Of a stretch of DNA of 64,000 bases, positions 1-58,062 are shown piece by piece. Within the stretch, counting starts at the first letter, position 1; every line of letters begins with the position of its first letter. Source of the DNA: a virus; IMG/VR virus record IMGVR_UViG_3300037088_000682, positions 7,489 to 71,488 of that record. The stretch is one strand, 5' to 3'. The notes under the pieces were generated by a model that did not search any database, was not told where the DNA came from, and was given only the letters and a program-made list of their open reading frames with translations. Both the position numbers and the translations under genes were made by a program.

Positions 1-80
1 ACCCGCCACCGGTAAGTGATCCCCCTTCCTGGTGGCTTCAAGAGATACCCACTCGATTCGAACGAGAGGATGTTATCTGA
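1..80 (+). CDS. 3' end of a hypothetical protein (partial) carrying the C-terminal TRFER tag
   Basis: Frame 3 from position 3 reads PPPVSDPPSWWLQEIPTRFEREDVI-stop (TGA 78-80); not in the ORF track. Confidence 0.75.
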   Translation, partial: PPPVSDPPSWWLQEIPTRFEREDVI

Positions 81-663
81 ATTCATCCTTCCAAAGTTTG
101 ACTAGGTTGTTGCAGTGTTGGAGATCTTCTGGGGTTGGCTTAGCAAAGTAATTGTTTGAGACATTGAAGCTCTCAAACCCATCGAATGCCCCACTCATCC
201 GTCCAAAGATGAGGTCCCTTCTCCAGAATAACCCACTCTTTGAGACGAAGTAACCATCGCCCTCTCGAATTACCCTCCCGGCATCAAGTCCAAACTCCTC
301 GAACCACAGACGACTCAGCTTCCGACAATACTCTTGATCAGCCTTGAGCTCGTTTACATCGTGAAGTCTCTCGTATTCGAATGGGCTTTCATCATCTACT
401 ATAGCTATTTCGAGCCCACCTCGAAATATTACCCCACCCCGATAAACCTTGTAGTTATCGAGAGTAATCGCCTCAGACGGGGTTTCATCAGACGGGTCAT
501 CATCTAGATCAAGAGGGGGTGGGTACAGCTTTTTCGGAGTCGGAGCTTGACCCAACTCTTTAGCTATCTGAATCCCCTCTTTCAAACCCTTCTTGTGACC
601 GATTAGATAGCCAAGAAGAAGTGCAACTGCAATGAGGAAACCTATAGTGACAGGTGGAAGCAT
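73..663 (-). CDS. hypothetical protein with N-terminal transmembrane helix
   Basis: ORF 73..795; likely start at MLPPVTIGFLIAVALLLGYLIG, just downstream of the previous gene's stop. Confidence 0.6.
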   Translation of the reverse strand: MLPPVTIGFLIAVALLLGYLIGHKKGLKEGIQIAKELGQAPTPKKLYPPPLDLDDDPSDETPSEAITLDNYKVYRGGVIFRGGLEIAIVDDESPFEYERLHDVNELKADQEYCRKLSRLWFEEFGLDAGRVIREGDGYFVSKSGLFWRRDLIFGRMSGAFDGFESFNVSNNYFAKPTPEDLQHCNNLVKLWKDEFR

Positions 664-664
664 A

Positions 665-1471
665 TCACTCCGGCAACTCAAGCATCCAGCTCTCCCAACC
701 CGGGAGCGATAGGAACAGGTGAAGGCCAAGTAGCTCTTCGGCTGCTGGCACATCCCAATCATGCACACAGATTGGGGAATTCTTGTCAAGATCAAACATT
801 GTCCTGTTACCAGACTTCTCGGATCGGTTCGGCTTGGTGCGTGAGGTCAAGAGGTAGCGATGGCCAGTGTCCTGCCCGACTGTGATGAACTGATTCGTTC
901 GCCTGAAGTCTTCCAGCTGCTCTGGATTCAAGAAGGTCTCTAGAACCTTGGTGGCCCTAATCTCAGCCTTCACGAACTCAGGAACAGGACATCCCCTGAC
1001 GGGTACAGCTACCGTGGTAGCAGCCACCACCCTCGCTGGTCTAATGTCGTTCCAGTAATCTTCAATCCTCTCTAGTACAGTAGGGGTAGGTGGAGTCACA
1101 GCAGTGGGGTTAGGCTCTGGCTCGATCTTGTACTCTTGAAGTCGACCGTCTGCCAACTTCACAGCTGACACCTGACCCCGATGGGGTTTCAGTCTAGAGG
1201 TGATGTGTCTGGCAACCTTAGTGAGGGGCGCCTGGAGTCTAACAGTCATCCCGTGTTCTGTTCGACAAATCGATGGAAGAATGCTTGGAAAGGATTCTGG
1301 GGTAGCCCAAGGCTTATGAATCATTCCCCCCTTCAGAGCCTTTCGCCTGAAGGCCTCCATAACCGTCAGTTCCTCGTTCGACAGGCTGAACATCCTCAGA
1401 GAGGTCTCGGTTTGGCTCACTGCCTCTAATTGAATATCCCCGTGAAAACTCGGAATGTACCACGTTATCAT
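665..1471 (-). CDS. hypothetical protein (internal IEDYWNDIR motif)
   Basis: 268-aa ORF in a minus-strand gene run. Confidence 0.7.
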   Translation of the reverse strand: MITWYIPSFHGDIQLEAVSQTETSLRMFSLSNEELTVMEAFRRKALKGGMIHKPWATPESFPSILPSICRTEHGMTVRLQAPLTKVARHITSRLKPHRGQVSAVKLADGRLQEYKIEPEPNPTAVTPPTPTVLERIEDYWNDIRPARVVAATTVAVPVRGCPVPEFVKAEIRATKVLETFLNPEQLEDFRRTNQFITVGQDTGHRYLLTSRTKPNRSEKSGNRTMFDLDKNSPICVHDWDVPAAEELLGLHLFLSLPGWESWMLELPE

Positions 1472-2066
1472 TACTGTTTCTCTCCTTGAGGTTTACGATC
1501 AACTGTGCAACCCTATCATTAATGATTCTGCGACTATCTACGTCGGCTTGATTCATAGTATCCAGGACTGTGATCAAGTCCTTCAACTCTTGTACCCCTG
1601 CTGCAGCCAATTGAGCTCGTTGGTTCTCAATGGTGACTTGGGACAGAGTGTCCATTTGAATACTCAGGTCTCTTTTCTGCTGGCGAGGATCTGTGTGGCG
1701 AGGATCTGTGTATTGGATGGGTACAGCCATCTCTCCTACAGCACCAGCGTAAATAACACCCCCAGTAGTTCCCCCATAGATCCCCTCATCTTCATTATCG
1801 CCCTCAAAGAGGTTGGCATCATACTTACACTCCTTTCTAGGAACCCTCGGCTTAGCTTCCGCCCGCATCAACGACTGAGCAACCTCACACAAGCTCGCTA
1901 CAGAAGAGAACCTAGTCCGTTCACTCGAATCAAGCTTGTCGGCTATGAGCGCCTTGATGGCTTCAAGTGCTGTCTTTAAGTGTCCTTCTTCCTCGACTGG
2001 CAGGTGATCGAGCTTACTAGTTTGTTTCATCATCATGGGGCAGGTACCAATTACACCTGAAAACAC
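1314..2066 (-). CDS. hypothetical protein
   Basis: 250-aa ORF; GGTGTA element lies upstream of the MMM run near 2037; 3' overlap with the next gene is unusually long. Confidence 0.6.
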   Translation of the reverse strand: MFSGVIGTCPMMMKQTSKLDHLPVEEEGHLKTALEAIKALIADKLDSSERTRFSSVASLCEVAQSLMRAEAKPRVPRKECKYDANLFEGDNEDEGIYGGTTGGVIYAGAVGEMAVPIQYTDPRHTDPRQQKRDLSIQMDTLSQVTIENQRAQLAAAGVQELKDLITVLDTMNQADVDSRRIINDRVAQLIVNLKERNSNDNVVHSEFSRGYSIRGSEPNRDLSEDVQPVERGTDGYGGLQAKGSEGGNDS

Positions 2067-4678: not shown

Positions 4679-4987
4679 GTGCCCGCCCGAGACATCTCCG
4701 ACCTAGCTCAGGACATGATTGACACCCTCGTGGGGGAGGGTGTCGACTTTGAGGCTGCCTGTGATGCTGCCGAGAACTCGTTGTCTGAACTCCTGAACCC
4801 AGTGTACTCCAGGATGTTTAATGAGTACATCGAGATTCAGACCAATTGTGAGAATGCAGCGGCCACGGTCACCGACAGAATACGGGAACAACGGGGGCAG
4901 CCGCAGCAAGATCCCGAGCCTCCACAAACTTCTGATGAGCAGGAAGTTGTACGACGTTCTAGGTTCGAAAGGGATGAGGTTGTTTGA
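4679..4987 (+). CDS. hypothetical protein, C-terminal tag SRFERDEVV
   Basis: ORF track; tag at the terminus. Confidence 0.7.
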   Translation: MPARDISDLAQDMIDTLVGEGVDFEAACDAAENSLSELLNPVYSRMFNEYIEIQTNCENAAATVTDRIREQRGQPQQDPEPPQTSDEQEVVRRSRFERDEVV

Positions 4988-5190: not shown

Positions 5191-5549
5191 GAACTCTCAA
5201 GGAAATCTTCGAAAAAGAACAAGACTTCGATGTCGCTATGTACGAGCTCGGGACGATGCTCGGGTTCTGGCCTGAAGTCGATTGGCAGAACCGCGAGAGC
5301 TGGCTTCAGTACAACGAGAGGAAGTGGATCTTCTGGAGTAATAACCCGGTCGGCAACCACCTCTCGAAGATGCTTGAAGAACTCGTAGGGATGGGAGCAC
5401 TCATCAAATGTGGGAAAGATGAGTTGGGGGTCAAGTACAACGAGTTATTCATACCGGATGCAGTAGGCCCCTCTGAGGATTCAGAAGAGGAAACCGGGTT
5501 CGTCGACCAGGAAGCGGGTTCTCACATCATACCCAAGGTGAAGAGCTAG
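5187..5549 (+). CDS. hypothetical protein
   Basis: 120-aa ORF in an operon-like run. Confidence 0.6.
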   Translation: MRTLKEIFEKEQDFDVAMYELGTMLGFWPEVDWQNRESWLQYNERKWIFWSNNPVGNHLSKMLEELVGMGALIKCGKDELGVKYNELFIPDAVGPSEDSEEETGFVDQEAGSHIIPKVKS

Positions 5550-5819
5550 ATCACCTCATCTCGTTCAAATCTAGAAGGCGTTTCTGGGGGCTTGATCTCT
5601 GGAGCCTCGGAGAACCCATTTCATCTCGAGAATCCATTTCGTTAGCTTGGCCCTAACTTCCGGGCCACTCAAATGCGCTATATGATTGACTGATAGACTA
5701 CAGTTACCTAAGTGTAAGGTAACATCAGGGCACCCATCATGGGCTCGAACTAGGGAAGCCCTCACTTGTAGCTTTTGGGTGTGTTCGAACTCCCCAGTGA
5801 ACGGGTCTATGGCCACCAA
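5547..5819 (-). pseudogene. hypothetical protein with frameshift; true C-terminus APEIKPPETPSRFERDEVI
   Basis: ORF 5571..5819 ends ...PRNAF, but an alternative frame from about 5620 reads NGFSEAPEIKPPETPSRFERDEVI-stop. Confidence 0.55.
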
Positions 5820-5923: not shown

Positions 5924-6441
5924 ATGCCCTTTCGATCCCTCGACGACCTAATCACGGACATCACGGATACCATGCTAGAAGTGGCGGACTCTAGCAACGA
6001 TCCCATTGTTGCTTATGAGAACTTACTGGAAAGCCTACCCCGCATCATCCGCTTGTTAATCGATGGGGTACTGGTCAATTCAGGTGATTCAGTAAAGATA
6101 TCTCTAGTTAACGGTCTAGCAACTAGGGTGCGAAGTCAGATAATGACTCGTATCAGGGTTCCTGCAGAAAGACATACTCTGGTTGACCCAGCCACCCTAA
6201 CGGTTCCACTACGAAATCGTCACCACTGGATTCGTAACATGGGACAGACGACTCTTTGCACCTGTGGCTACTGCTCCCTTGAGATTGAAGAAGGGGAGGT
6301 AACTAACCTGAGAGACAATCCCTGTCCGGGAAGACGTATTGATTACGCCCCCGAGATTGAGATAAGTTCCAAGTCAAAAAGAACACGGGTGTGCCAGAAC
6401 CTGTCCGACCCACCCGCTTCGAACGAGAAGAACCGATCTAG
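5924..6441 (+). pseudogene. hypothetical protein with frameshift near 6360; true C-terminus VPEPVRPTRFEREEPI
   Basis: Frame 1 from 6361 reads DKFQVKKNTGVPEPVRPTRFEREEPI-stop(6441); one missing G at gagattga/gataag would join the frames. Confidence 0.6.
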
Positions 6442-7047
6442 TCTCACTCCTTCTTGTCGGGAGCGCCCTCCAGCCGCCGGATGCTCTCGAGAGCATCCTC
6501 CTCATTGTCGACGGTCTTAAGGATAGCCCCAGTGACGATCTCCACAGCAACATGAACCTTGTAGTTGGTCTTCCGTTCGAGAAGATCCAGAAGCTTGGCC
6601 AAGGTGGGGTCGGTAATCGCCCCCTTCTCCTCGACGGTTCTCACAATCTCATCTGCACTTGAACGAGTTCCAGCCATAGTTCTCCTGTGTTAGCGGGTTG
6701 AAAGAAGTGTCCAGGTGCTTCCAAGATTGCAAACCCGGTACAGCTTGTAGTGGGGGCCGCCGAAGGGCGGCTGGGTGTGATCGTGGATCTGCATCAACTC
6801 ACAATCCTGAGTCTCGAAGCTGTAGTAGGATGGATCTCCCCTGTGAGAGCAGCCAACCTGTTGTAGGAGAACCCCTACTGTGAAAGCCCCGATGAGGGCC
6901 AGTGTTTTGAAGGTCTTGTTAGGCATTTTCATCGGAGCTTTCACAGTTTGGGTTCCAGAAAGTCATTCATGTCGGCGGAGGCCCAGAGTCCGCCGGGGCC
7001 CGCCCAAACCACCGGCGCGAGTCTCTCAAGTTCGGTTGGGGTCGGCA

Positions 7048-7371
7048 TTATTTCACTGCCTCGGACTCAAGGCTTGGAGCACTGATTGTAGGTCGTTCTG
7101 GGTAGAACACTCCCATGCTCAGGTCTCCCGAGGCTACATGGTTGCGAAGTTCCCCGTGAAGTTGGCGGAGGGTCAAGAGCTTGGCCTTGGCTTCTTTCAG
7201 CCATTCGGCTTCGCCGGCCTTGCGCTCTTCAACCCAGGAATCCCTGTGTAATGGGTCAATCTCCCAGTCATATCCGCCAAACTTGGCTGAGAAAATCAAC
7301 CAGAGTTCCCAGTTCAGGGCAAGCTCTTTGGCTACTTCAGGATTGAGAGGGATCTTTACAGCGGCTGGCAT
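7048..7371 (-). CDS. hypothetical protein
   Basis: 107-aa ORF; CCGTA-9nt-ATG upstream. Confidence 0.55.
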   Translation of the reverse strand: MPAAVKIPLNPEVAKELALNWELWLIFSAKFGGYDWEIDPLHRDSWVEERKAGEAEWLKEAKAKLLTLRQLHGELRNHVASGDLSMGVFYPERPTISAPSLESEAVK

Positions 7372-7637
7372 AACTAATACTACGGATGAGGGGTGAAGAT
7401 CTCACCACTAACCATGAACAATATCGTGTCCGTTTTGAGCTTCCTCGAGCGCAATCTCCCCTTGATGGTACCCCAGCCGGTAGGTTGGGCTTGCGTCCTC
7501 TGGGCACCTTCTGCCAGAGCGGCCACAGTCCCGGCCTAGTCTCCAGATCTGGATGACCCTGTCGCTCTCTTCCAGGGTGGCTCCGCCGGGGCACCCCAGC
7601 GCGTGACTTCCCCCACCATTACCACAGTAGTGACAAC

Positions 7638-7946
7638 TCATGTAGCCGGCTCCTGAATGTAGAGAGGTCGGTGTTTGGGGTCAATCTTGATCTCGAAGGA
7701 CTCCTCCATCACAGCCACAAAGGACTCCCAGTCCTCTAAGGTGGGCTCGGCCTTACTGTGTCGAACCATTTGAGGGGTATTCCAGTGTAGGTTGTACTCC
7801 CGGGATATTGGACAGAATCTAGCAATACACCGGCACAACCGATTGACCCAGACAGTACGCCCGTCTGATTCTACATGGGTATTCTTTACTCGGGTAGTAA
7901 CTCTTTCTCTGCGTAGGGTAGTGTTCATCAACCGGTAGTCTTCCAT
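7638..7946 (-). CDS. hypothetical protein
   Basis: 102-aa ORF in a minus-strand run. Confidence 0.55.
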   Translation of the reverse strand: MEDYRLMNTTLRRERVTTRVKNTHVESDGRTVWVNRLCRCIARFCPISREYNLHWNTPQMVRHSKAEPTLEDWESFVAVMEESFEIKIDPKHRPLYIQEPAT

Positions 7947-7947
7947 C

Positions 7948-8673
7948 TTACACCAAAACCCCCTTCTTCTGAGCTATGTACTTCTTGAGTCTCAAGGTGA
8001 ATTCACCATCAGTCAGATCACACTTGGCCATATTAAGCCAAAGTGGAACCACTCTAATGTTTCCAACCTCATATTGGATCTTCGGGCTTACTCTATCCAG
8101 AGAGGCCCTGTCCGCAATTTTGTCAACCCCTCGGGTACTAGAGAAGTTCATATACGGGAACCTCTCTAATCCTTTTAGAGCTAAGGTGACCAAAGTATCA
8201 AGTGGTATTACCGAGCGGCTCTGGTATCGTCCGCCTTTAGAGGCTCTTTTGAGTACCCTCTTCGCCCAATAGTATACCTGTTTCTCTAATGGCCGCTTAC
8301 TGAGCGTCTTTCGGAAGTTTGAACCCCACTCCCTGAGTTTCAGTAGGTGAGCCGCCCTCTCTTGGGGATTGAACCTAGCGCGTCGATTAGACTCCCTCTT
8401 TGCATGACAAACTTTGCAGGTAAACCCTGTATAACTTCTTTTACACTTTGTGCAAATCCTCACCCTAGCTAACACCTCGGGTAGTGCTCTATAGTGAGTT
8501 GCGCATAATCCTTTAGATTGTATTGGATTATAGCACTTGAGTACACTACACGATTTTCTTTTCCTACCTGGATTAGTGATAGTACTGTAGTAATGTGACC
8601 TACAAAAACCCTTCGCATAATAATTACGACCACAACCCCTAACAGAACACTTTCTACCACCAGGCCAGCCCAT
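7948..8673 (-). CDS. HNH-like endonuclease with N-terminal Cys/His zinc-binding repeats
   Basis: Two CSVxxC...KGxCxxHY repeats; C-terminal SLDRV...YEVGNIRVV...N..K HNH-like core. Confidence 0.65.
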   Translation of the reverse strand: MGWPGGRKCSVRGCGRNYYAKGFCRSHYYSTITNPGRKRKSCSVLKCYNPIQSKGLCATHYRALPEVLARVRICTKCKRSYTGFTCKVCHAKRESNRRARFNPQERAAHLLKLREWGSNFRKTLSKRPLEKQVYYWAKRVLKRASKGGRYQSRSVIPLDTLVTLALKGLERFPYMNFSSTRGVDKIADRASLDRVSPKIQYEVGNIRVVPLWLNMAKCDLTDGEFTLRLKKYIAQKKGVLV

Positions 8674-8963
8674 AAAAGTTTACTTTCCTGTGATGCCCTT
8701 GCGAGTCTCCGCTTCACTTCGACACGAACAGATCCAAGCCTCGTCCAGCTTCATCAACCTTGAAGGGTAATGACAGGTTCGGGTCGTAACCCCAGAGCCC
8801 AAGACGGACTCCTCACACTTTGTGAGCATTACCCGTAGGTCTCTGTTGGGATTGAGCATTAATGCTAGCAAAGCAATCGAAAATACAACAGCAAGTACTA
8901 GGAGTGAAGTCTTCATTTAGTGTTCATTTTCTCGTTTGTTCTTGGCGTGTTGCTCCACAAGAC

Positions 8964-9683
8964 TCAGCCGGCGCGGGCAGGTGAGGCTAGCCTCTTCCGT
9001 GCAGTTCTGTGATCTACATGACTCACAATATATCTTGTCCTCGGGGACTTCGGGGACTTCGAACCACTTGAAAAGCCACTTGAACATGAATTCCCCTTTC
9101 GGGTGAGGTAGCTCTCGATGTCCTCTACCCTACCAGGGTGATTGTCATAAGTTCCGTCTTGACAGCGGCCCTGGTACCTGTCGAACACTTCGCGGCGAGA
9201 GTTCAGAACCCCAATCAACCAACCCGGGACAGGCTCCCACTCTGGCTTGAGGCCAAGGCTGGCATTGACCCGCTTCGTCCTTCTACGAGTCACCTTGAGG
9301 AAGCCAAAGGGGTTTTCCAGGATGGCCAGAGCTTCCTGCTTCGCCCTCGTCCAAGACTCGTTTGTGAGCCTCATCTCCCAAAGCGGGACTAAGTCTATGT
9401 TGATGACCCCAGTCCCACGCCAAGGTCGCCTTGTTCGTAATTCGTAGTCCCGACTCAAATCTCTGTCCGTATGGTGGGGAACCTTCCAGAAGTACCTGTA
9501 GTACAGTGTGTTGGTGGTAAAGTCGACTACCCAACGCTCGGGGCCCTCATCGTGAATGAATGCACCTGAGTGCCGGCGGGTATCAATCCTGCTCTGTCGG
9601 TACCACAGACCAGCGCAGACCAATCCAATGAGGCATCCCATTACTATCATGCGGCGGCTGTCCCTGGATGATCCTTGAGCCAT
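8964..9683 (-). CDS. hypothetical membrane-anchored protein
   Basis: N-terminal hydrophobic helix; 239-aa ORF. Confidence 0.55.
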   Translation of the reverse strand: MAQGSSRDSRRMIVMGCLIGLVCAGLWYRQSRIDTRRHSGAFIHDEGPERWVVDFTTNTLYYRYFWKVPHHTDRDLSRDYELRTRRPWRGTGVINIDLVPLWEMRLTNESWTRAKQEALAILENPFGFLKVTRRRTKRVNASLGLKPEWEPVPGWLIGVLNSRREVFDRYQGRCQDGTYDNHPGRVEDIESYLTRKGNSCSSGFSSGSKSPKSPRTRYIVSHVDHRTARKRLASPARAG

Positions 9684-10102
9684 TGGTTGGCTTCACCTTC
9701 ATCACAGAAGTTGGCGTAGGCATAGCCACTCTGATCTCCAAACACACAGAAGGCAGCGACACCCTCATCCCACTCGACATAGCGCCCCTCACCGGGGATA
9801 GGCTTCAGATCTTCATACTTTTGATGCATGTCGAACTCGCTTCTTTGATTTTGGTACCAACTCGAGATGGAGTCTAGCCATTACTTTCCCGTTTGAGCAG
9901 CTAAACCGATTAGCCGTACGCCTGGATGCCCTATCAGCGGGGCAGTTATCGGTACCGATCAGGCAATCGCAGTCTGGCCCCCAGGATATTGGAACGTTAA
10001 ACTTGTCTAGACCACTGAAGGCACGGCCTGGCTTACCATCATCGGCAATCCAGCGTCTGCCATCCCAGCGCTCCACCTCTTTGGATCCGGTGGGAGGGCG
10101 GC

Positions 10103-12058: not shown

Positions 12059-12063
12059 GAGCA

Positions 12064-12303: not shown

Positions 12304-12617
12304 GGCTTCCAGCCATTAGCGATGGTCGAGCGCGGTAGACTCAAACGGTCTTGGTACACGCGAGGTCGGGTTCTCAAAGAGAAGGATCTAAAAGAGGGCC
12401 TTGTCATCTGGGCGTACTTACAGCTCTACGAGAATGCCCAACCCACAATCAACAGGCCGGTGGATCTTCGAATGCACCACAAGCCCTCCGGACACTTCTG
12501 GATGCTCGGGGATGCCGAGTACGACTATGAGCCCATCGGCGATCCCGAAGAGGACTGCTGCATTGAGTTCCCCGAGGGCACCCTCACACTCTACGAGGCA
12601 GTGACTAAGCCGAAGCC

Positions 12618-45644: not shown

Positions 45645-45665
45645 GCTTCGGTGTAAGTGGGGTGG

Positions 45666-48163: not shown

Positions 48164-48199
48164 GAATCACCTCTACACCGGTGTAAGAGGTGATTCATG
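48161..48199. promoter_or_regulatory. palindromic bidirectional promoter / translation-start element
   Basis: CATGAATCACCTCTACACCGGTGTAAGAGGTGATTCATG is a near-perfect inverted repeat linking two divergent start codons. Confidence 0.65.
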
Positions 48200-49102
48200 C
48201 CAACGTGGCAGATTGAATATCCATCTCACAGACAAGGGATTCGTTCTCGGTATAGCGAGGACGTTAGTCTCATTCGCAATGACCAGTCTTTTGCAAATAT
48301 GGTGGTTACTGAACTAACAGATCGACCAATCATTGTAATCAAGGTCTCATTCCTTGGGGTTGGCCCTAGTGATCCAAGAGTTAGAGAGATAGTTCGATGT
48401 GGGTCTTTTCAGATCCCTCCTAACATATGGTTCCCTCTACAGGTGAGTAGGATAACCCCGGATGAGAATGGTAGGTATCGGGTACGTGGTCGCACCCAGC
48501 ATGCAGCTATAATCGATGATGCAGCTCACTTCATACCTGGAACACCCGTCGGTATCGATCCTGCCACCGGCTTGATAGTACCCAACTCGAACAATCCAAT
48601 TGGATTGATTAGTGAGGAAACCTCACTACTGGAGGATCCCCCTCCTAGGATTCTTCTAGGAATTGATCCAGGCAGCGGATCAGATAGAACAGCGGTAACA
48701 GTCTCCCGCTACCCAGTTCGAACCGAGATGACTGTCATACCCGGCGATGAACCCTCCTCACTCAGTCTTGGGTTTACCATACGCGAAGAGATTGGGATCG
48801 GAGTTTTCAACCCTGAAGCTGTGCGAAGAGTTTCGATGCCCACCTTCGAGCTCCAAGAAAACCCATCCATAAACATTGGAGACATTAGGAGTAGACGGTT
48901 CGATCTAGTTGATCGTGCTCGACAATCCATTCAAGAATCTGAAGATCAGCGTATATTTGATGCTCTAGATGCAGCTGTTGATCAGCCCTTCATTGATCGA
49001 CCCATCAGAGGTTTCCAACAGCCCACTCCAGAACCTGTATATGACGGGCCACGACCCATTAGATTCACACGGATCTTAGAGGACGAGTGGTACCCCCTAT
49101 GA
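48197..49102 (+). CDS. hypothetical protein with capsid-like segments, tag variant IRFTRILEDE
   Basis: PVRTEMTV...GFTIREEIGIGVFNP and PTFELQENPSI...RRFDLVDRA..IQESEDQRIF segments. Confidence 0.7.
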   Translation: MPTWQIEYPSHRQGIRSRYSEDVSLIRNDQSFANMVVTELTDRPIIVIKVSFLGVGPSDPRVREIVRCGSFQIPPNIWFPLQVSRITPDENGRYRVRGRTQHAAIIDDAAHFIPGTPVGIDPATGLIVPNSNNPIGLISEETSLLEDPPPRILLGIDPGSGSDRTAVTVSRYPVRTEMTVIPGDEPSSLSLGFTIREEIGIGVFNPEAVRRVSMPTFELQENPSINIGDIRSRRFDLVDRARQSIQESEDQRIFDALDAAVDQPFIDRPIRGFQQPTPEPVYDGPRPIRFTRILEDEWYPL

Positions 49103-49633
49103 GTTGAAGATAGTCCCCTCAGAAACCTTTTCTTCCATTGTCAAGGCTTCTCTGGCCACCCCAAGGACTCTAACCGCAACAACAGAGGTGGCTGTACGGG
49201 TACCCGTTCGATGAACCCGATGAGTCTTCCCCTTGTGATCGAACGTTCTTTCTGGTAATGAACGTCTCCAAACAGCTATAAGCCTCTGCCCTAGCCCCAT
49301 GACGGTCAAGGAGGAACCTTTGAGTAGCTCCTGGTCAACAGGTTCAATCCCGGGAGCCTCCCCTTCTACGTCCTCTAGAGGGGAACCATCAAGGAACTCC
49401 CCGAGCGAGATCAAACCTATCTCGAGCGAAGGATACTTCCCAGATGGGCCGTTCGGTTTTAGGGATACGTTGATTCTTCCGTTCTCCGCCAAGGCTTCCA
49501 GTGTAAATCCTTGCATGATCTTATGGTCAACAAGCTCCACCTCCCGGTCGAGTCGTTCGAATCTTGAAACTATGGGGCCTTCCGCAGGCTCAATGATGTC
49601 GATGTTGTGGTCAAAGCGAGTTAATTCAGCCAT
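49097..49633 (-). CDS. hypothetical protein with two N-terminal tag-like motifs
   Basis: MAELTRFDH...IVSRFERLDREV. Confidence 0.6.
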   Translation of the reverse strand: MAELTRFDHNIDIIEPAEGPIVSRFERLDREVELVDHKIMQGFTLEALAENGRINVSLKPNGPSGKYPSLEIGLISLGEFLDGSPLEDVEGEAPGIEPVDQELLKGSSLTVMGLGQRLIAVWRRSLPERTFDHKGKTHRVHRTGTRTATSVVAVRVLGVAREALTMEEKVSEGTIFNS

Positions 49634-49645: not shown

Positions 49646-50053
49646 ATGTCCGGTCTGTACCTACCGGGAGTTCAAGAAACACTGTCGTGGATCCTTAATC
49701 TGAACGATATGAGATCTGCACACGTTGAGGAATTGAGTTTCGTTTGCTGGGCTAATACTCTAGAGGAATTACAAGATTTCGTCAATCGAGAACAAGTCGA
49801 GTGTTATATGGATGGTAAGTGGGGGAAAACCTTCAGGAAATTCGGCCCACTTGAGTGGTACAACAAACCCTGGGACGTAGGTAACCACTATCTTCAGGCC
49901 CCACCAACCGTAATTATTCATGGGATCCTGGAGTATCGAGCCCCTATCATAGTGAATCTTCCGAGTATCGAAGATCTTGAGCAGCGAGCTAAGTACGAAC
50001 ACCCAGAGAACCCTACTAGGTTTGAACGCATTGCCTTTAATATGGTCAAGTAG
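49646..50053 (+). CDS. hypothetical protein, C-terminal tag PTRFERIAF
   Basis: Tag near the terminus. Confidence 0.65.
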   Translation: MSGLYLPGVQETLSWILNLNDMRSAHVEELSFVCWANTLEELQDFVNREQVECYMDGKWGKTFRKFGPLEWYNKPWDVGNHYLQAPPTVIIHGILEYRAPIIVNLPSIEDLEQRAKYEHPENPTRFERIAFNMVK

Positions 50054-51214
50054 ATGCCACCACCAATTTGGGCAACACTAGGGCAGGCTATCTACCCGAG
50101 GCCCGCCGAAGGGAACATAATCAGCAGGGATTCTGTTGCGATCATCGTTTACATCAGGGATGAAGAAGTGCATCTTAACTCTAGTGGGGTTGTATTTACC
50201 GTAGATACCAGCATATTAGCTCGAGATTGGATGCCAAGTTCAGAAGCAGAGCCCTTTTTACAGTGGGGTATTCCTTCAGGGGTTACTCATATTCTTGGGG
50301 GTCAACCTGAGTTCGTTGGGGTACTTCCTGTTACCCCAGAGTTAGTTCCAATCCAACCTACTGATCCGGTAAGCAATCGTTGGCTTCAAACCGGGGTCAG
50401 GCTCCAACCGTTGGGAGAAGGCCCAGGAGGAGTCATTACTGGGGTGACTGATCGCGGGATTCATATTAGAGACGTTGAGCGTTGGGACACAACTCCCATG
50501 CAACTTGGAACTACCGTACGAGTCTTCACTCCTCTGGAAGTCTTAGAGTTATACCGGCCAGCTCCGCCACCCATGCCATCTTGGTTCGCCGTTGGCTCTA
50601 GGATTGTTCAAAACCACGATCAACGGACTTACATTATTCTCTCATTCAGCCCAGAAACCTACTCCATGAGGGCTACCCTCGAAGACGAGGTAAGCCCAGT
50701 CACTTTCTCTGTCAATGACTTCGCTCGCCACTGGAGACCCGCTAGCTCCATCGTCGAACATCGACCCAATAGCAATAACACCCCGCTTGTTCCAACAAGA
50801 GTTCAGGTTGCTCCGCCTTGGTTAATCCCAGGTACTTTTCTTAGAAAACGAGCTAAACCACCCTACTTGGTGACCGTCACAAGCCTAGATTCAGAGCATT
50901 TTACTGTACGGCTGACTCAAGTGGCAAGCTTGAATCCAATGAAATTGGGTCCTACTTGGGAGGAAACCGAGTACTGTAAAGTAGAAGAGCAGTTTAATCC
51001 AGTTGATTTGGATGGGGTCGCAAGGGCTGAGTACAAGTGCCCGAAGTGCGGGGAACTTGGCGCCAGAGACAAGGCAGCGGAAGAGCGAAGATTGATTGAA
51101 AAGGTACGGGCTTATACCTGCAAGCAAGAGCACACGTGGTACTTCATTGACGGTACCGACTACGACGGCCAGGTAGCGATACCCACTAGATTTGAAAGGG
51201 ATATCGGCATTTAG
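50054..51214 (+). CDS. multi-module hypothetical protein with zinc ribbon, C-terminal tag PTRFERDIGI
   Basis: Four (P)xW...G repeats; CPKC...C..EH; tag at the terminus. Confidence 0.75.
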   Translation: MPPPIWATLGQAIYPRPAEGNIISRDSVAIIVYIRDEEVHLNSSGVVFTVDTSILARDWMPSSEAEPFLQWGIPSGVTHILGGQPEFVGVLPVTPELVPIQPTDPVSNRWLQTGVRLQPLGEGPGGVITGVTDRGIHIRDVERWDTTPMQLGTTVRVFTPLEVLELYRPAPPPMPSWFAVGSRIVQNHDQRTYIILSFSPETYSMRATLEDEVSPVTFSVNDFARHWRPASSIVEHRPNSNNTPLVPTRVQVAPPWLIPGTFLRKRAKPPYLVTVTSLDSEHFTVRLTQVASLNPMKLGPTWEETEYCKVEEQFNPVDLDGVARAEYKCPKCGELGARDKAAEERRLIEKVRAYTCKQEHTWYFIDGTDYDGQVAIPTRFERDIGI

Positions 51215-51257: not shown

Positions 51258-52466
51258 ATGAATAAACCGACCAAACTCAAGACTCCTCGGCCCGTACCTT
51301 TCAAGAAACCAGAATGGTGGAATGCATTCAACCTCGAATCTCTCGAAAGGTACAGCGATACTGCCAGGATGCTCCTGGATTATGCAATCACCTCTGGCCA
51401 GACGGTCTACTCGGGAAGCTGCAAGGGTGTTCTGGAGGATGCCGGAGAAGAACACGCTTTTGAGGAGTTCGTCAAAGCTCTGGTTGATGGGGTTGGGGGC
51501 TCCACAAACTTCGCCCACTGCCCGATATTTGGACGCGGTGAAACTGAAACCTGGGTCCTATGGGCCAACGGGTCTATTACGATTCGGGTTGGGCTCGACA
51601 AGAAGATAACGGTTAGCATCTGCACTCTCAGTCTAGAGTCCTATCAGATTGTTGGGGGTATTCTGGGAGAATACTTGTTGCCGGAGAACGTGAGACAGCC
51701 GGTTTATGCTCTTGCTGAGGGCCCGACTGGTACTGAAATCATGGAGGTTGGGCTCGCCGGTGAGGCTCTCGAGCGTGATAACTACGAGGATGAGGTTCTC
51801 AAAGGCTTTGACTTCATAGTGTCGGAGTTCCAACGGGAAGCCCCCATCGGGCGCCTAGCCATCATATACGGAGACCCGGGCAGCGGCAAGACCTACATGA
51901 TTCGTGGATTCCTCGAAGAAGTGCCAGATGCCATCTTCGTTCTGATACCTAGCCACCTTGTTGAGTCACTAGCGGGACCAAAATTGGTACCTATGTTGAT
52001 TCGAGCTCGAAGTTTGGCTGGAACAGACAGTCCCATCATCCTAGTTATCGAGGATGCGGATAAGGCTCTTGTCATTCGGGAGGAGGGATCTCTGGCAGCC
52101 ATCTCTTCTCTGCTCAATGTGTCTGATGGTATCCTTGGACACACGCTGAACTTGAGGGTCATTTGCACCACCAATGCCAAGATTGAACACATTGATCCAG
52201 CTCTTTTAAGGGCTGGTCGACTCTCACTTCAGATCAATATTGGGAAGTTGTCCACCGCGAAGTGTACTGCTATCTACGAGCGAATCATGAACGGGGAAAC
52301 TGTCATCTTCAACGAGGAACAACCCCTCGCCGAGGTCTATCGGTTCGCCAATACCGAATCTTATGCTGATTCAGATGAGGACACCGATGAGAGTGAAGAC
52401 GAAGACGAGGATGATGACGAAACTCTCGATGGTGATGACGATGAGGACGAGGACGAAGAGGAATGA
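51258..52466 (+). CDS. AAA+ ATPase with highly acidic C-terminal tail
   Basis: GDPGSGKT; LVIEDAD; LLNVSDG; TTN...IDPALLRAGRL; D/E tail of about 30 aa. Confidence 0.9.
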   Translation: MNKPTKLKTPRPVPFKKPEWWNAFNLESLERYSDTARMLLDYAITSGQTVYSGSCKGVLEDAGEEHAFEEFVKALVDGVGGSTNFAHCPIFGRGETETWVLWANGSITIRVGLDKKITVSICTLSLESYQIVGGILGEYLLPENVRQPVYALAEGPTGTEIMEVGLAGEALERDNYEDEVLKGFDFIVSEFQREAPIGRLAIIYGDPGSGKTYMIRGFLEEVPDAIFVLIPSHLVESLAGPKLVPMLIRARSLAGTDSPIILVIEDADKALVIREEGSLAAISSLLNVSDGILGHTLNLRVICTTNAKIEHIDPALLRAGRLSLQINIGKLSTAKCTAIYERIMNGETVIFNEEQPLAEVYRFANTESYADSDEDTDESEDEDEDDDETLDGDDDEDEDEEE

Positions 52467-52772: not shown

Positions 52773-53203
52773 GTGGGATTTCTTATACGTTTCAATGACT
52801 CAGTAATCACTGTTATGCATCGAGGTGATACTCGCTGCACCTTACGGGTAGAGAACGGGCCCGTTACGATTCAACGATATGATCCTGGGTCGGATCAGTC
52901 TGAACACACAACTAATCTTAGGGCATACAGGAGTCAACTTCTACCTAACCTGCACTTCTATGTGTCAGAACACAAAAAACCCCACCAGAGGTTGTTAGAC
53001 CCACCCGCTTTGAGAGACTTCTTCGAGAGTCCGAGGTTTGGGAAGAATATCGACCCCCACCTAAACCTATCCAAAAGAGCAAAGAAATCACAGAGGCTGA
53101 GTTGGCAGAAATCTTCAACAAGCCTAAGAAGATGATTGCTGAGGCTCCAGATCCAATGGGGATCGACATTACGAAACTTATGGAAGAGGTTTTGAAGTCC
53201 TAG
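52773..53203 (+). pseudogene. hypothetical protein with probable frameshift near 53075
   Basis: Alternative frame KEITEAELAEIFNKPKKMIAEAPDPMGIDITKLMEEVLKS-stop fills the gap to the next promoter. Confidence 0.45.
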
Positions 53204-53220: not shown

Positions 53221-54150
53221 ATGCTGTTCCGACTAGACAACCCACGCTTCATCATGAACTCGCAGGAATTCCCTGCGAATGTAGTTTTCTACTGTCTGGC
53301 CTATCAGGACTGCACGGGGGATCTCATTGTCAATTACACAGATCCCGGGTCATCGAGACGTGTAACCGAACCCATTACTCCAACCAGAAGTTTACCCATA
53401 TTTGCCGGGATGACTCTTCATGAGTATGTAGTTCCGTTTTTAGAGTTACATGACAATCTTGGACGGCGCGGGGCCACCGTTGGGTTCAACTTCGTAGCTC
53501 GAAGTTCCTTCAGGGTTGCCGGAGCCAACTATGGTACTCGAACCTTAGATACGACCATGATATTCCCAGTCATTGGCGGTGGAATCATTAGGATCCAAGC
53601 CGGTGGGCAGGAATGGGACATTGCCAACCCAACCTTTGACCCCAATGCCCAAATTCCAGGAATGAATACCACTTATGGAACGGGAGGTAGCGCAGATTAC
53701 ATAAGCGGCCCTCAAGGGATTGAAAACCGACGAGTACCTGATGATATCATGATCAATGCTTACCAAAGGACACATCGTGGTTACGTCGGTGATACTAGTG
53801 AAATTGAACGTAGGCGAGCCGCTCGTCTAGCCAACTTTGATCTGAGAGAGGTGTCCGCTCTCGAACAGCAACAGGAAGCCCAGACCCCACCCCCACAAGC
53901 TGAGAGTAGAATCACTTTGTCGGCAGCCGAATTACGTCGACAAGAACGGGAAGTTCAGATTCAGGAAGCCGAAACTAGCCGAGTAGGCAGCCTATCCCCA
54001 ACCCCGGCTATCGGCGGGCACAGCCGTATTATCGGAGCGAGACTCACAGAAGAGCGGGAGGTTAGTTTGATCATGCCGGCAACCAAAGCCCCCAAAGCTC
54101 CACCGAAAACCCGCCTCGAACGCATATCCGAAGATACAGAAGAAGATTGA
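53221..54150 (+). CDS. hypothetical protein, tag variant TRLERISEDTEED
   Basis: GGTGTA upstream; Pro-rich linker precedes the tag. Confidence 0.7.
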   Translation: MLFRLDNPRFIMNSQEFPANVVFYCLAYQDCTGDLIVNYTDPGSSRRVTEPITPTRSLPIFAGMTLHEYVVPFLELHDNLGRRGATVGFNFVARSSFRVAGANYGTRTLDTTMIFPVIGGGIIRIQAGGQEWDIANPTFDPNAQIPGMNTTYGTGGSADYISGPQGIENRRVPDDIMINAYQRTHRGYVGDTSEIERRRAARLANFDLREVSALEQQQEAQTPPPQAESRITLSAAELRRQEREVQIQEAETSRVGSLSPTPAIGGHSRIIGARLTEEREVSLIMPATKAPKAPPKTRLERISEDTEED

Positions 54151-54192: not shown

Positions 54193-54690
54193 ATGAAATT
54201 CCTCAAGGATCTGATTCCAATAGTAGATGAACTTAGGATTACCATCCGACACATTGTTGGGGTAGGACTGCGTAAGATCGCTGATTACCTATTGTGGGAT
54301 TACAACGAGGCATCACCCGTTGAGGTCAAGCCATCGGTAGAAGTCGATCCTCCAGTCAAGGTGCGGGATCGAAGCAACTACGATCCTATGAAGCACGGGT
54401 CAGTCCCATCAGCCTTGTATGGGGCTCTCACAGTGCTCTTGGCAAAGATGCCGCCTGGGTATCCGATGACCATCAATCAACTCTTGGAGGAGTTTGAGGC
54501 CACCGATTCAACGCTACGCAAAGGGCTCAAGATCATGATCGAGCGCGGAGTTATCGGTCAGGGTGGGTCTCCAGCAGAGTTCTTCATTCTCGACAGGGAT
54601 GGAGCTACCAAACAGGTCAAGGAATTTGAGGAGAGGGGGGTAGCCTTGTACCTAAAGCAACGCGGGGAAGCGGACGCGAGCCTGCACTAA
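54193..54690 (+). CDS. winged-helix-like protein
   Basis: MTINQLLEEFEATDSTLRKGLKIMIERGVI. Confidence 0.5.
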   Translation: MKFLKDLIPIVDELRITIRHIVGVGLRKIADYLLWDYNEASPVEVKPSVEVDPPVKVRDRSNYDPMKHGSVPSALYGALTVLLAKMPPGYPMTINQLLEEFEATDSTLRKGLKIMIERGVIGQGGSPAEFFILDRDGATKQVKEFEERGVALYLKQRGEADASLH

Positions 54691-55212
54691 CTTTCTGAAA
54701 AGGGCTTCTTTCCCAGGCATTGAGAACGGAAGTGTGATAAAGATCTTGTCGTCTCCCGAGTCACCACCCCACAACACCATCTCATAAGCAGCCCACTCGA
54801 ACGGCCCCACGGGAAATGGCTGAATAGGTTCCTCTGCGTAGGCCAAACATACATGGGGTTTGTACTCAGGGTGCTTCTTCGAATACTTGACGTTGGCCTC
54901 ATCGAATGAGGTGCAGAGATCCTTTTGAAACTGAACTAACTCAGGGCTCTTCACAATTCCAATGATGGGTACTCCGTCATCACCCTTAGGGAAGCAACCC
55001 ACCTCTTCTACGAGTAATGGGATGGGTCGAGTACGACTAGCTACCTCATAGGCCACTATGATTGCTTTGGAGATCTCGTCGATAGGGACGTTACTTCCAA
55101 AATAAATGGCAGTAATATGCAAGTCCGCCCTGCTCTCAGCCTCACCAGGTACATCAATCTGGCTTAGTAGGCGCGCTACCTCATGAGGTACAGCTAATCC
55201 GAGAAATGCCAT
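54652..55212 (-). CDS. 2H phosphoesterase (LigT/Acb1-like)
   Basis: Two Hx(T/S)-type motifs: LHITAIY and YKPHVCLAY. Confidence 0.8.
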   Translation of the reverse strand: MAFLGLAVPHEVARLLSQIDVPGEAESRADLHITAIYFGSNVPIDEISKAIIVAYEVASRTRPIPLLVEEVGCFPKGDDGVPIIGIVKSPELVQFQKDLCTSFDEANVKYSKKHPEYKPHVCLAYAEEPIQPFPVGPFEWAAYEMVLWGGDSGDDKIFITLPFSMPGKEALFRKLVQARVRFPALL

Positions 55213-55824: not shown

Positions 55825-56389
55825 CCTGAACCTTGGGGCCAACATAAAAGTTACGGTACTGTCACCAAATTAGTTGAGATTTATGCCTCATATCCGTAAT
55901 AGTTTATGAGGCATATGGAATACGAAGTCCTAAATTTACGAACGAGAAGGCGAATAGCGAAGCTTTGGGGTGTTCCACCTTTCAGGGTCGATGTTCAAGT
56001 TGACCCTGAAAGGAAGCTACTGAAGGCGACTATTGACGGACATGATCCCGATGAGACTCTACAAGCTATCTTGGAGAAGGACATTCGAGATTTCACTCAA
56101 GCCGCTGTACGTGGGATGAACTAGATGTCCCAGATAACTGCTGCACGAACGGTGACTCGAGTTGATCTGTTTGACGCTGCCTATCGAGGGTTCCGAGTGT
56201 ACAAGGGGATCCGAGAAGCGGCTACAGAGGCTCTTCAAGATGTCATTGGGCCAACCAAGGTCACGCCAATCCTGGGTGGCTACTCCATCGTCTGCGGTGA
56301 GAAGGGTGTGATGGCAGGGGATAACGAAAACGAATTTCTAGAGTCAGCCAGAAGATTAGCCTCTCAGTTCAGAAAGTAACAAAACTCAT

Positions 56390-56878
56390 ATGTCGAATGA
56401 AGTGACGGCTGTTTACGCAGGCAGCTTCGACCCAATTACCCATGGCCACGAAGACCTTGTCAAGAGAGCCAGTCTTCGATTCAAGGAGGTCATAGTTGGA
56501 ATCGGAACCAACTCGTCAAAGACCCCATTCTTCCTACCGGGGGAGCGCAAGCAGCTCATCGAAACCGTCTGTTCTGAGATTGGCAACGTCCGAGTTGAAA
56601 TCTTCAGTGGCCTTTTGGTCAAGTTCTGTAAGAGCGTTGGAGCCGGAGTCATCATCCGCGGGTTCAGATCAGTATCTGACTTCGAGGTTGAGTTGGCCAT
56701 AGCTCATGTGAACTCACAACAGGCACCGGAGATTGAGACCTTCTTCCTAGCGGCGAAGCCAGAGCACACTTTCATCTCCTCCTCGGTAGCCCGTGAGCTT
56801 GCCTTGCACGGCGGCAATCTTGAGTACTACGTCCACCCTGAAGTGGCTAAGGCCATGAGGCGGAAGTCTAGTGGATAA
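56390..56878 (+). CDS. coaD: phosphopantetheine adenylyltransferase
   Basis: YAGSFDPITHGH, IIRGFRSVSDFE.E, IETFFL, ISSS..RE. Confidence 0.93.
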   Translation: MSNEVTAVYAGSFDPITHGHEDLVKRASLRFKEVIVGIGTNSSKTPFFLPGERKQLIETVCSEIGNVRVEIFSGLLVKFCKSVGAGVIIRGFRSVSDFEVELAIAHVNSQQAPEIETFFLAAKPEHTFISSSVARELALHGGNLEYYVHPEVAKAMRRKSSG

Positions 56879-57063
56879 CGACCCCAAGTTCCCAAAGGGT
56901 AATGAGGGTGTCATCGCCGCCCGCCAGTATCTCTATGGGGTGCTCTGGTCAATGCTAGATACTGAATTGAACGGAGACAACCTCGGGAAGCTAGAGGGAT
57001 GGGTGTTCGGCGGCATCGAAACAGAGCATGACAAGAAGCTACTCATTAAGGCTATTGAACGCC

Positions 57064-57573
57064 TCAAGAGTTCGGTGCGCAAGAAGGCTGGCTGGTCTTG
57101 AGCATCTCTTCTGCCGTGTTCCTGAGTATCTGAGTCAATTGCGGGTTGATCCCAAATCTATTCGAGTTGTACTCAATACTGCGCATAATGTCCCCGTCAG
57201 CATGTCTCTTTGTAGATGCTAACCAATCGATCATCATCTCGAGAAGGTCGATAAGATTCATTCCCTCGATGCCATTGGGGTAGAACTGCGGATGATGTTT
57301 GTTATTTTTGTAATGGTGCTCTAGGGCTGGCCCCATCTCAGTGAGGTACTGATTGTACTCGGGGCTCCCAAAGGTTGTCCCTCGCAGCTTCGAAGTGTAC
57401 TCAGCGAACATGCTGACCTCAGGGGATACTAGCTTGGAGAGGTCGTGGAGCTCACCTCGCTTGAGTAACTCTACGGCGGCTTCCCTAAGGAGCACCCTCA
57501 CTACATTGATGTGCTTCTGGGTCTCTGCATTAGCTTCGAGCTCGGCAAGGTTTAGCTTCTGCGTTTCAGTCAT
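57064..57573 (-). CDS. HD-like domain protein (DUF5662-type)
   Basis: HI..V, HDLSK, HHY..N.HHP, DLLEM..DW. Confidence 0.7.
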   Translation of the reverse strand: MTETQKLNLAELEANAETQKHINVVRVLLREAAVELLKRGELHDLSKLVSPEVSMFAEYTSKLRGTTFGSPEYNQYLTEMGPALEHHYKNNKHHPQFYPNGIEGMNLIDLLEMMIDWLASTKRHADGDIMRSIEYNSNRFGINPQLTQILRNTAEEMLKTSQPSCAPNS

Positions 57574-58062
57574 TCAATCGTCTTCCAGTAAGGCATTGAT
57601 TCGGTCGAATCTAGTTAGCTGCCCTTGTTGGGCAACCCCGTTAAATAGTGGGTTGTTGGTGTTGAGTCTAGAGAACATCCACTTAACTGGGACAGTTGGT
57701 ACCACAACGATGGGTGTCTCAAAGACAATGAAGGTCAGCTGAAAGTTGACTCGGATGATCTCGAGTTCAAGATTGTCCCAGTCAGAGCCCTCTCTTGTCA
57801 GAATAAAGTCGATAGCAAAGGCAGTACCCCGTTGAGATCCTAAGTAAGATCTAGCCTCATACTCACCCGCTCGATAGAGTTTGAAAACTGGGTCATCAGA
57901 CTTGAAACTACTCACCCTAGACTTTCTGGTGGGGTGTCGATCAATACGAACAAGGGAGGGTGTCCACATCTGCTCAGGGCCACCACCCAAGATAACCTGT
58001 GGGGTTAGTCCACGGATCTTATCGATCTTGGCCTCGGGCCTCGACAAGTCGATTTGAATCAA
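57574..58062 (-). CDS. hypothetical protein, C-terminal tag TRFDRINALLEDD
   Basis: Tag at the terminus. Confidence 0.65.
   Translation of the reverse strand: MIQIDLSRPEAKIDKIRGLTPQVILGGGPEQMWTPSLVRIDRHPTRKSRVSSFKSDDPVFKLYRAGEYEARSYLGSQRGTAFAIDFILTREGSDWDNLELEIIRVNFQLTFIVFETPIVVVPTVPVKWMFSRLNTNNPLFNGVAQQGQLTRFDRINALLEDD

Follow-up and report, generated by a model that had tools for sequence, protein, structure and literature searches.

Why do 22 otherwise unrelated proteins encoded on one stretch of viral DNA end in nearly the same short peptide, and what reads it? The stretch, hereafter the window, is 64,000 nucleotides long and covers bases 7489–71488 of a single 71,488-bp virus record (IMG/VR IMGVR_UViG_3300037088_000682; G000 in our genome labels). 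About one in seven of the proteins of this fragment, otherwise unrelated to one another, carries a C-terminal tag that consists of Thr-Arg-Phe-Glu-Arg and a short tail. Our analysis of the sequence indicates that the tag is a real short linear motif, strongly non-random in its occurrence and under selection at the peptide level, and we consider it on balance probable that it is a portable docking or address label for one cytoplasmic partner.

A shared C-terminal tag

A six-frame regular-expression search of the window for [TS]RF[EQH]R returned 17 matches, 11 of them exactly 9 residues before a stop codon, 4 more within 20 residues of one and 2 elsewhere. C-termini were also read directly, from a greedy set of 152 open reading frames (ORFs) covering the whole 71,488-bp record and from all open frames of at least 60 amino acids. 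The motif lies in the last 32 residues of 19 intact frames of at least 60 amino acids; the cut-off ORF at 1–80 and two tags behind frame breaks (5546–5620 on the minus strand and 6360–6441) complete the total of 22. All 22 tags listed in the original prediction were recovered by these two routes, with the correction that the tag at 5547 lies on the minus strand; the gene first placed at 47094 has an uncertain start. The record contains a further tag, SRFERDQVI, upstream of the window.

The endings fall into two subtypes (Table 1). Subtype A has the form P-[TS]-R-F-E-R-[ED]-[DEP]-V-[IV]-stop and subtype B the form [TS]-R-[FL]-[EQD]-R-[IV]-[LIAM], followed mostly by an acidic tail; hybrids such as TRFHRILWDEVI also occur. 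Every subtype B ending in the table, the hybrid included, was read directly. As first described, the tag follows variable Pro-rich linkers, on unrelated small soluble and membrane-anchored proteins and on both strands.

Within 20 residues of a stop codon, [TS]RF[EQ]R is observed 15 times, whereas 30 shuffles of the 71-kb record, a comparison that the original prediction had called for, give a mean of 0.13. Codon counts and a sequence logo are based on a non-redundant set of 109 tags, taken from the record and 29 related loci. Each Arg position draws on all six Arg codons (at the first, CGA 27, AGG 28, CGG 19, CGC 16, AGA 15 and CGT 4), Phe is encoded by TTT in 47 tags and by TTC in 47, and Glu by GAA in 44 and by GAG in 48. 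Because all synonymous codons occur at the tag positions, what is conserved is the peptide and not a DNA repeat, as had been proposed from the window. Across the record and the same 29 loci, 75 of 133 motif matches keep the 9-residue register to the stop codon and 131 lie within 40 residues of it, always in the frame and orientation of their own gene, on either strand. Among 68 subtype A tags, the residue at −2 is D or E in 44 and P in 12, and the last residue is I, V or L in 63; C-terminal ligands of class III PDZ domains have the form [DE]-x-hydrophobic-COOH.

The motif also occurs internally, in the gene at 52773–53203, and twice near the N-terminus of the 178-amino-acid (aa) protein encoded at 49097–49633, hereafter p178. 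Three carriers in this record are interrupted by frame breaks (5546–5819 on the minus strand, 5924–6441 and 52773–53203). The breaks resemble single-base insertions or deletions relative to intact homologues, the gene at 52773–53203 being one continuous frame in relatives, and at least one of them lies at an A-run; they are probably assembly indels, programmed frameshifts being less likely.

A trait of a megaphage clade

The window encodes an AAA ATPase, AAA1, that is 70–73% identical to proteins of two related genomes, G004 (145 kb) and G003 (complete, with terminal repeats, 512,571 bp), and the gene order around it matches that of G003 at 212–232 kb. Identity and gene order together point to the record being a fragment of a bacterial megaphage of roughly 0.5 Mb. 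Its recognizable genes include those for nucleotide metabolism (CCA-adding enzyme, thymidine kinase and OMP decarboxylase), counter-defence-like genes (NADAR and an Acb1-like 2H phosphoesterase; also PLD), a sigma factor, receiver domains, two PF00004 AAA ATPases, an HNH endonuclease and a papain-like peptidase. No capsid, portal, terminase or tail family was found among window ORFs of at least 90 aa, apart from weak PHROG rows on the protein at 23815–24870, and BLAST of 5.5 kb of the window against phage GenBank gave no match. The window contains no tRNA or tmRNA, and a link to tmRNA tagging was dropped.

Of the 810 greedy ORFs of G003, which total 160,339 residues, 53 have the tag among their last 32 residues, whereas all the remaining residues contain 13 matches to the motif. 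All but one of the tagged G003 ORFs lie at 0–290 kb, and the exception, at 502 kb, adjoins them across the terminal repeat; the block at 300–500 kb, which consists of few, large ORFs, has no tagged gene. Searched as DNA, the bare pattern T-R-F-E-R is found 50 times in G003, 43 times in G002 and 26 times in G004, with 0, 0 and 1 matches for the reversed control. The strict pattern P-T-R-F-E-R-[DE]-x-[VIM]-[VIM]-stop matches 29 stretches of IMG/VR, all of them in seven contigs of this clade with up to about 14 per contig. Metagenomes, when scanned, yielded 42 stretches; most are pieces of genomes of this clade, from a small number of samples, and they provided no new context. Altogether, members of the clade tag about 7–15% of their proteins, which are small, fast-evolving and mutually unrelated.

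Relatives differ in how densely and in what form they use the tag. G002 (61% median identity to G003; record 45% complete) has 51 tags, 31 of subtype A and 20 of subtype B. In the more distant genomes, credible tags were judged by eye from a Pro-rich or polar linker, the core motif and a hydrophobic or acidic tail. By this measure G007 (complete, 407 kb, 50% median identity) has about 27 credible tags among 46 listed near-stop matches, more often with D at position 4 and with looser endings (EDPL, EDVV, DDVL); G010 (380 kb) has about 8 of 24, shortened to [ST]R[FY][DE]R[ILF]-stop; and G009 (complete, 448 kb) has one of 20, PPPPPNRFDRMMDDD-stop. Pattern against control counts are 32 versus 7 in G007, 15 versus 15 in G010 and 12 versus 9 in G009. 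The core R-[FY]-x-R-hydrophobic is thus older than dense tagging, and dense use with a fixed nine-residue form is a trait of the G000/G002/G003/G004 lineage, shared more loosely by G007.

These dialects follow phage phylogeny. Partial G002 loci had suggested that they track the host instead, an idea that we rejected once the whole record placed G002 nearer to G003 than G007 is (median identity to G003 over 42 shared ORFs, 60.8% for G002 and 49.5% for G007). 

Three side observations concern the same genomes. A DUF1653 protein at 45657–46136 (plus strand) of the window ends in HPRFMRVK-stop and its G007 homologue in RLRFMRT-stop, near-tags that fit neither subtype. A 289-aa protein (G003:C1:403571-404440) is 96–98% identical among G003, G007, G010 and G009, against about 40–60% for the other proteins that these genomes share, and is either recently exchanged or under extreme constraint. 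In about 48 G003 ORFs the hexamer GGTGTA precedes the start codon by 9–12 nucleotides, and in 75 of 810 it is found within 40 nucleotides upstream; as a marker of tagged genes it was rejected, since it precedes 8 of 53 tagged and 67 of 757 untagged ORFs and does not discriminate.

Carrier proteins

With the tag removed, the 53 tagged G003 proteins form 44 BLAST clusters, including six small clusters of two or three paralogues, which agrees with the original view of the carriers as mutually unrelated; 69 tagged proteins from G003 and the window, when aligned, have a mean column identity of 7%. The endings themselves are kept. Of 11 homologues of the 386-aa protein (52–87% identical), 10 end in [ST]RFERDIGI and the eleventh ends differently, and all five orthologues of the 122-aa protein retain the tag, so that in the homologues checked the endings are nearly unchanged while the bodies diverge.

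Most tagged proteins have no Pfam family. In the window, three tagged proteins included in one family scan matched none (0 of 3), and 13 included in another have no Pfam match at E ≤ 0.001, as deduced from the non-overlapping family lists of two scans. Matches are few among the 69 proteins of G003 and the window: G003 carriers match DUF6794 (8 × 10−22) and, in one case, a RecA/KaiC-like P-loop family (6 × 10−5), and one has a weak, below cut-off Tad2-like match (1.7 × 10−4). The original statement that no recognizable enzyme carries the tag holds for the window. The tagged protein at 23815–24870 has weak PHROG rows for virion structural (6.2 × 10−11), head decoration (7.7 × 10−6) and tail fibre (3.6 × 10−5) proteins.

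A minority of carriers are membrane-anchored: six or seven of the 22 in the window have one to three predicted N-terminal membrane helices. The tail is cytoplasmic where topology could be judged, by the positive-inside rule for the proteins at 22988, 24867 and 30084 and by the architecture shared with 24867 for that at 23815; the protein at 19109 is ambiguous. The reader should therefore be cytoplasmic.

A conserved AAA module among tagged genes

Between 42637 and 54150 nearly every gene is tagged, ten in all, with AAA1 in the middle of the block. The block is kept in G003, G004 and two shorter contigs, and AAA1 stands among 9–10 tagged genes in both the window and G003; in G010 there are three credible tags within 10 kb of it and a further two within 22 kb. 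In more distant relatives AAA1 keeps the company of the genes for p178, a 100-aa protein, a 2H phosphoesterase and AAA2, a paralogue of AAA1.

AAA1 and AAA2 match PF00004 (E of 3 × 10−13 and 1 × 10−11), and the AAA domain is of the Cdc48/p97/Rpt/FtsH type, with a profile match to Cdc48 in the PDB at 1 × 10−26 and Z scores of 13–14.4 to FtsHi, Rpt, p97 and Bcs1. The Walker A and B motifs, sensor and Arg fingers of a classical-clade ATPase are readable in the sequences. The N-domain of AAA1, about 195 residues, is confidently folded in its model (pLDDT about 80–95); no fold could be assigned to it in a fold search with the whole model, which was filled by matches to the AAA domain, and the ESM Atlas gave leads only (viral clusters 0.92–0.93, DUF5925 0.88, BCS1_N 0.82). 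A poly-Asp/Glu tail ends AAA1 and nearly all of its inspected homologues, even at 31% identity (L083), with the exceptions of L078 and L079. Processive unfoldases thread their substrate with an aromatic residue of pore loop 1. The pore loop of the phage AAA proteins, in our own reading made with no alignment to a solved pore loop, is S-L-A-G, resembling p97 D1, and has no aromatic residue.

p178 carries the two N-terminal tag-like motifs as TRFDH-x-IDI and SRFERLDRE, in which R6, R24 and F25 are invariant in 15 sequences. In the predicted model, residues 1–23 have low confidence and the second motif opens helix 24–40 of the folded part, which suggests that the B form would be helical when bound. 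The protein is present in G000, G003, G004, G007, L074, G008 and G010 and adjoins AAA genes in six lineages; in G010 its gene overlaps the start of the AAA2 homologue by 4 nucleotides on the same strand, with AAA1 next. It was not found in the complete G009, in which tags are at background, in G011 (67% complete), G002 (45% complete) or the bacterial genome G001 described below. p178 has no match in Pfam, no sequence match in the PDB and nothing in BFVD at E ≤ 0.001. Its top Foldseek rows in the PDB are all beta sliding clamps but weak (E 0.02–0.14, TM 0.11–0.14), and its best VIA-align result, Z 3.7, describes two weakly dsRBD-like alpha-beta3-alpha halves; on these values we rejected p178 as a sliding clamp.

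AAA2 and the Peptidase_C1 gene are adjacent in the window and in G003, and in G010 about 100 kb separates the peptidase homologue from the AAA genes. No Pfam, PHROG or Atlas match was obtained for the 515-aa neighbour of AAA2. A complex prediction that paired AAA1 residues 1–375 with the C-terminal 35 residues of the tagged 122-aa protein scored 0.00 in two runs, a result that counts neither way. A MoxR and vWA-peptidase pair was rejected as the reader, the MoxR gene (AAA_3, PF07726) being absent from all five related records, two of them complete, in a search whose control matched 13 of 14 known genomes. A phylogenetic profile singled out 29 G003 ORFs that G007 and G010 share and G009 lacks; Pfam found no reader-like domain in ten of these, which are enzymes (transglycosylase, RlaP, DHH, exonuclease) or match nothing.

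Among the other genes of the module are those for the Acb1-like 2H phosphoesterase (54652–55212, minus strand), NADAR (43069–43635, minus strand) and a cytidylyltransferase-like protein (56390–56878, plus strand). The content of the module suggests a counter-defence neighbourhood.

Tagged islands in a bacterial genome

Outside viruses, we searched one genome for each of 185,579 species and found the strict pattern in two, a Pseudomonas metagenome-assembled genome (MAG; L030), where the single match is not at the end of a listed ORF, and a MAG labelled 'uncultured delta proteobacterium' (G001). A pattern search of the whole 8-Mb G001 genome gave 6 tags against 0 for the control, in three places (Table 1). 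Each of these islands consists of short genes amid ordinary chromosomal genes (YebC, a GH53 glycosidase, a PLP enzyme); a VapE-like primase adjoins one and a tyrosine integrase another, and in one of the island proteins a B-like motif is combined with one of A type. None of the five megaphage records compared has homologues of the bodies of the tagged island proteins. A 304-aa sigma-like protein of the VapE island is 39–44% identical to a protein of G002, G003, G007 and G010 and 26% identical to that of G009.

In our reading, the islands are integrated elements of the likely host lineage, related to phages and satellite-like. They demonstrate that the tag can move between mobile elements and do not decide between a viral and a cellular reader. 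They also provide a host lead for an uncultivated phage clade and hint at satellites of megaphages.

What reads the tag

A portable label for a cytoplasmic partner would work through the core [ST]-R-[FL]-[EDQ]-R, continued in subtype A by [ED]-[DEP]-V-[IV] and a free C-terminus, the carboxylate of which would be part of recognition, and in subtype B by [IV]-[LIAM] and an acidic tail. A single cytoplasmic partner would read both, and the tag would hand its clients to an ATP-driven machine for remodelling, sorting or turnover. The likeliest phage-encoded reader would be the two Cdc48-like ATPases, AAA1 and AAA2, with p178; this set is the leading candidate, by gene neighbourhood only. Several points weigh against it. 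The neighbourhood is seen in four to six related, non-independent genomes, and p178 may be just another client. An SLAG pore loop with no aromatic residue would be unusual for a processive unfoldase. In G003, 44 of the 53 tagged genes are remote from the module, and G009 retains AAA1 (46% identity) but hardly any tags. A search of G002, with its 51 tags, did not find p178, although that record is only 45% complete, and the same dialect occurs on the three islands of a bacterial genome without p178; these islands would also fit a host-encoded reader, though one of them is phage-related. A bolder version, in which the clade has its own sorting system, the tag marks at least 50 accessory proteins per genome for AAA1/AAA2 and a p178 adaptor, and satellites copied the tag to enter the machine, seems to us rather unlikely.

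The label could instead be a degron for the timed destruction of accessory proteins, by a host protease of the ClpXP, Lon or FtsH type or by the phage AAA ATPases with the papain-like peptidase, such that early or host-takeover proteins vanish once their synthesis ends. The extreme C-terminal position, fixed register to a free carboxylate and flexible linker are those of ssrA-type degrons, the carriers are small accessory proteins with none in the large-gene block of G003, and AAA proteases associated with the membrane could reach the cytoplasmic tails of membrane proteins. The adjacency of AAA2 and Peptidase_C1 in the window and G003 would provide the phage machinery, and tags on integrated bacterial elements would suit a host protease. 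We nevertheless regard this as a minority possibility, given that the tag is not known to resemble the recognition classes of ClpX, Lon or SspB, that the motif is also internal and N-terminal, and that the peptidase homologue of G010 is so distant from the AAA genes. Loading into the virion is quite unlikely. In that case the tag, a C-terminal and much expanded counterpart of the T4 capsid targeting sequence, would dock counter-defence or takeover proteins to the procapsid interior, scaffold or portal for injection with the DNA. Carriers that are small ORFans, one in G003 with the weak Tad2-like match, a module with Acb1-like and NADAR genes and satellite-like islands that could enter helper capsids would all be in keeping with it. 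The logo, however, has no conserved cleavage motif before the tag, the 300–500-kb block of G003 is without tagged genes, and the six or seven window carriers with one to three predicted membrane helices are ill-suited to a capsid lumen; given these helices and the cytoplasmic tails, simple packing in the lumen therefore cannot hold for those carriers.

A host hub of the clamp, single-stranded DNA-binding protein, RNA polymerase or chaperone type, in one deltaproteobacterial lineage, at which phage and mobile elements dock, is a doubtful proposition at best. It would account for real tags in one MAG among all the species genomes searched, on three islands of which two adjoin the VapE-like primase and the tyrosine integrase, in a genome without p178, and dialects that differ between phage lineages could track hosts. 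Against it, the dialect follows phage phylogeny, with G002 nearer to G003 than G007 is, the tag is not known to match a hub-binding motif, and the sigma-like island protein shared with four megaphages raises the prospect that satellites meet the phage's own reader. Finally, the pattern could arise with no protein reader at all, as a nucleic-acid element at the 3′ end, an effect on translation termination or descent from one diverged gene family. Some adjacent tagged genes are indeed paralogous (the six clusters of G003), but the use of all synonymous codons at each tag position, the restriction of the motif to the gene's own frame on both strands, the 44 clusters formed by 53 bodies and the internal and N-terminal occurrences largely refute this reading, which we consider scarcely credible.

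A docking label for one cytoplasmic partner, our preferred reading, would give a handle on the dark matter of megaphages, whose genomes hold hundreds of small genes of unknown function: the tag, on 7–15% of proteins, places some 50 ORFans of each genome in a single functional class, predicts a single partner for them and could be a portable label for directing cargo. Should the phage AAA module prove to be the reader, it would represent a type of virus-encoded system, for sorting or turnover, that has not been described in phages; should a host hub or protease read the tag instead, this would reveal a common point of attack. New relative to the original prediction are the origin of the record in a megaphage of about 0.5 Mb, the standing of the tag as a clade trait with dialects, its absence from the large-gene block and its presence on integrated elements of a bacterium.

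Table 1 Tagged genes, linked genes and tagged islands. Positions are those of the window unless a G001 locus is named; A and B denote tag subtypes.
Feature	Position	Strand
C-terminal end of a 143-aa ORF, start upstream of the window; PTRFEREDVI-stop (A)	1–80	+
102-aa ORF; SRFERDEVV-stop (A)	4679–4987	+
Frame-broken gene; last frame ends PSRFERDEVI-stop, stop at 5546, just 15 open codons before the motif	5546–5819	−
Frame-broken gene, break near an A-run; last frame ends PTRFEREEPI-stop	5924–6441	+
119-aa protein, 2 predicted membrane helices; SRLARVLRDDYPL-stop (B)	19109–19468	−
276-aa protein, N-terminal membrane anchor; PTRFERDPVI-stop (A)	22988–23818	+
351-aa protein, 3 predicted membrane helices; PTRFERDAVV-stop (A)	23815–24870	+
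176-aa protein, 3 predicted membrane helices, cytoplasmic tail by positive-inside rule; PTRFERDEVI-stop (A)	24867–25397	+
128-aa ORF; TRFQRILTEDELGVCSQEG-stop (B)	27257–27643	−
165-aa ORF; TRLERVLGEDHAPTESHSNLPLV-stop (B)	29509–30006	+
126-aa protein, one membrane anchor; PTRFQRDEVV-stop (A)	30084–30464	+
111-aa protein, 2 predicted membrane helices, acidic linker; PTRFDRINNS-stop (B)	35215–35550	−
AAA2, 405-aa paralogue of AAA1 (PF00004)	37758–38975	+
157-aa ORF, first tagged gene of the conserved module; PSRFERADVI-stop (A)	42637–43110	+
121-aa ORF; TRSERILSDDDPTA-stop (B)	44984–45349	+
250-aa ORF; TRFQRILDDDD-stop (B)	46349–47101	+
Open frame, true start uncertain; TRFHRILWDEVI-stop (hybrid: B core and A ending)	47007–47438	+
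122-aa ORF, tag in 5 of 5 orthologues; PPTRFEREDVI-stop (A)	47795–48163	−
301-aa ORF; IRFTRILEDEWYPL-stop (B)	48197–49102	+
p178, 178-aa conserved protein; N-terminal tag-like motifs TRFDH (5–9) and SRFERL (23–28)	49097–49633	−
135-aa ORF; PTRFERIAFNMVK-stop (B)	49646–50053	+
386-aa ORF containing a zinc ribbon; PTRFERDIGI-stop (A)	50054–51214	+
AAA1, 402-aa classical-clade AAA ATPase (PF00004), mid tagged module; untagged	51258–52466	+
Frame-broken gene; PTRFERLL 66 residues before the stop, internal motif kept in intact-frame relatives	52773–53203	+
309-aa ORF; TRLERISEDTEED-stop (B)	53221–54150	+
162-aa ORF; TRFDRINALLEDD-stop (B)	57574–58062	−
Tagged island, L042	G001:C27:138000-157999, 6859–15388	
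Tagged island, L044	G001:C48, 8187–12209	
Tagged island, L043	G001:C40, 9947–10620	

Comparison with known systems

The original prediction knew of no described phage tag of this sequence, and literature searches aimed at such a tag, including the string TRFER, gave no published description in the portions of text they returned. The available excerpts of Iyer et al. (2021; PMC7824862), on MoxR and zinc-ribbon expansions, do not mention it.

Three known systems resemble parts of what we describe. The ssrA tag, the MuA tail and the SspB XB peptide are C-terminal degrons or tethering peptides of AAA+ proteases; the AAA+ machine or its N-domain recognizes them along with the free carboxylate. The tag is like them a peptide at the very C-terminus behind a flexible linker; unlike them, it has no likeness in sequence, and the phage AAA ATPases here have a pore loop without an aromatic residue.

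In concept, the closest parallel is the capsid targeting sequence of T4, which is N-terminal and is cut off by the prohead protease at a consensus site. According to PMC3012670, the internal proteins of T4 are diverse, fast-evolving and defence-countering and have only this sequence, which serves them as an address, in common, so that in both cases a short conserved peptide is the sole common feature of diverse phage accessory proteins. The tag differs in being C-terminal, in having no conserved cleavage site before it in the logo, and in being carried by at least 50 proteins per genome, integral membrane proteins included.

In form, the closest parallel is the set of sliding-clamp-binding C-terminal tails of T4 gp43, gp55 and gp33, described in PMC2988020 as highly similar, interchangeable hydrophobic and acidic epitopes that follow variable unstructured linkers and bind one hub. 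Subtype B tags and the subtype A ending are likewise hydrophobic and acidic and stand behind variable linkers. Unlike the T4 tails as presented there, the tag has an invariant R-F-x-R core with two invariant Arg residues. Its carriers, moreover, are not replication or transcription proteins: carriers expected at a clamp, such as a polymerase or sigma-like protein, do not appear among those of the window, which have no Pfam family and of which several are membrane proteins, and instead of three such tails the phage has tens.

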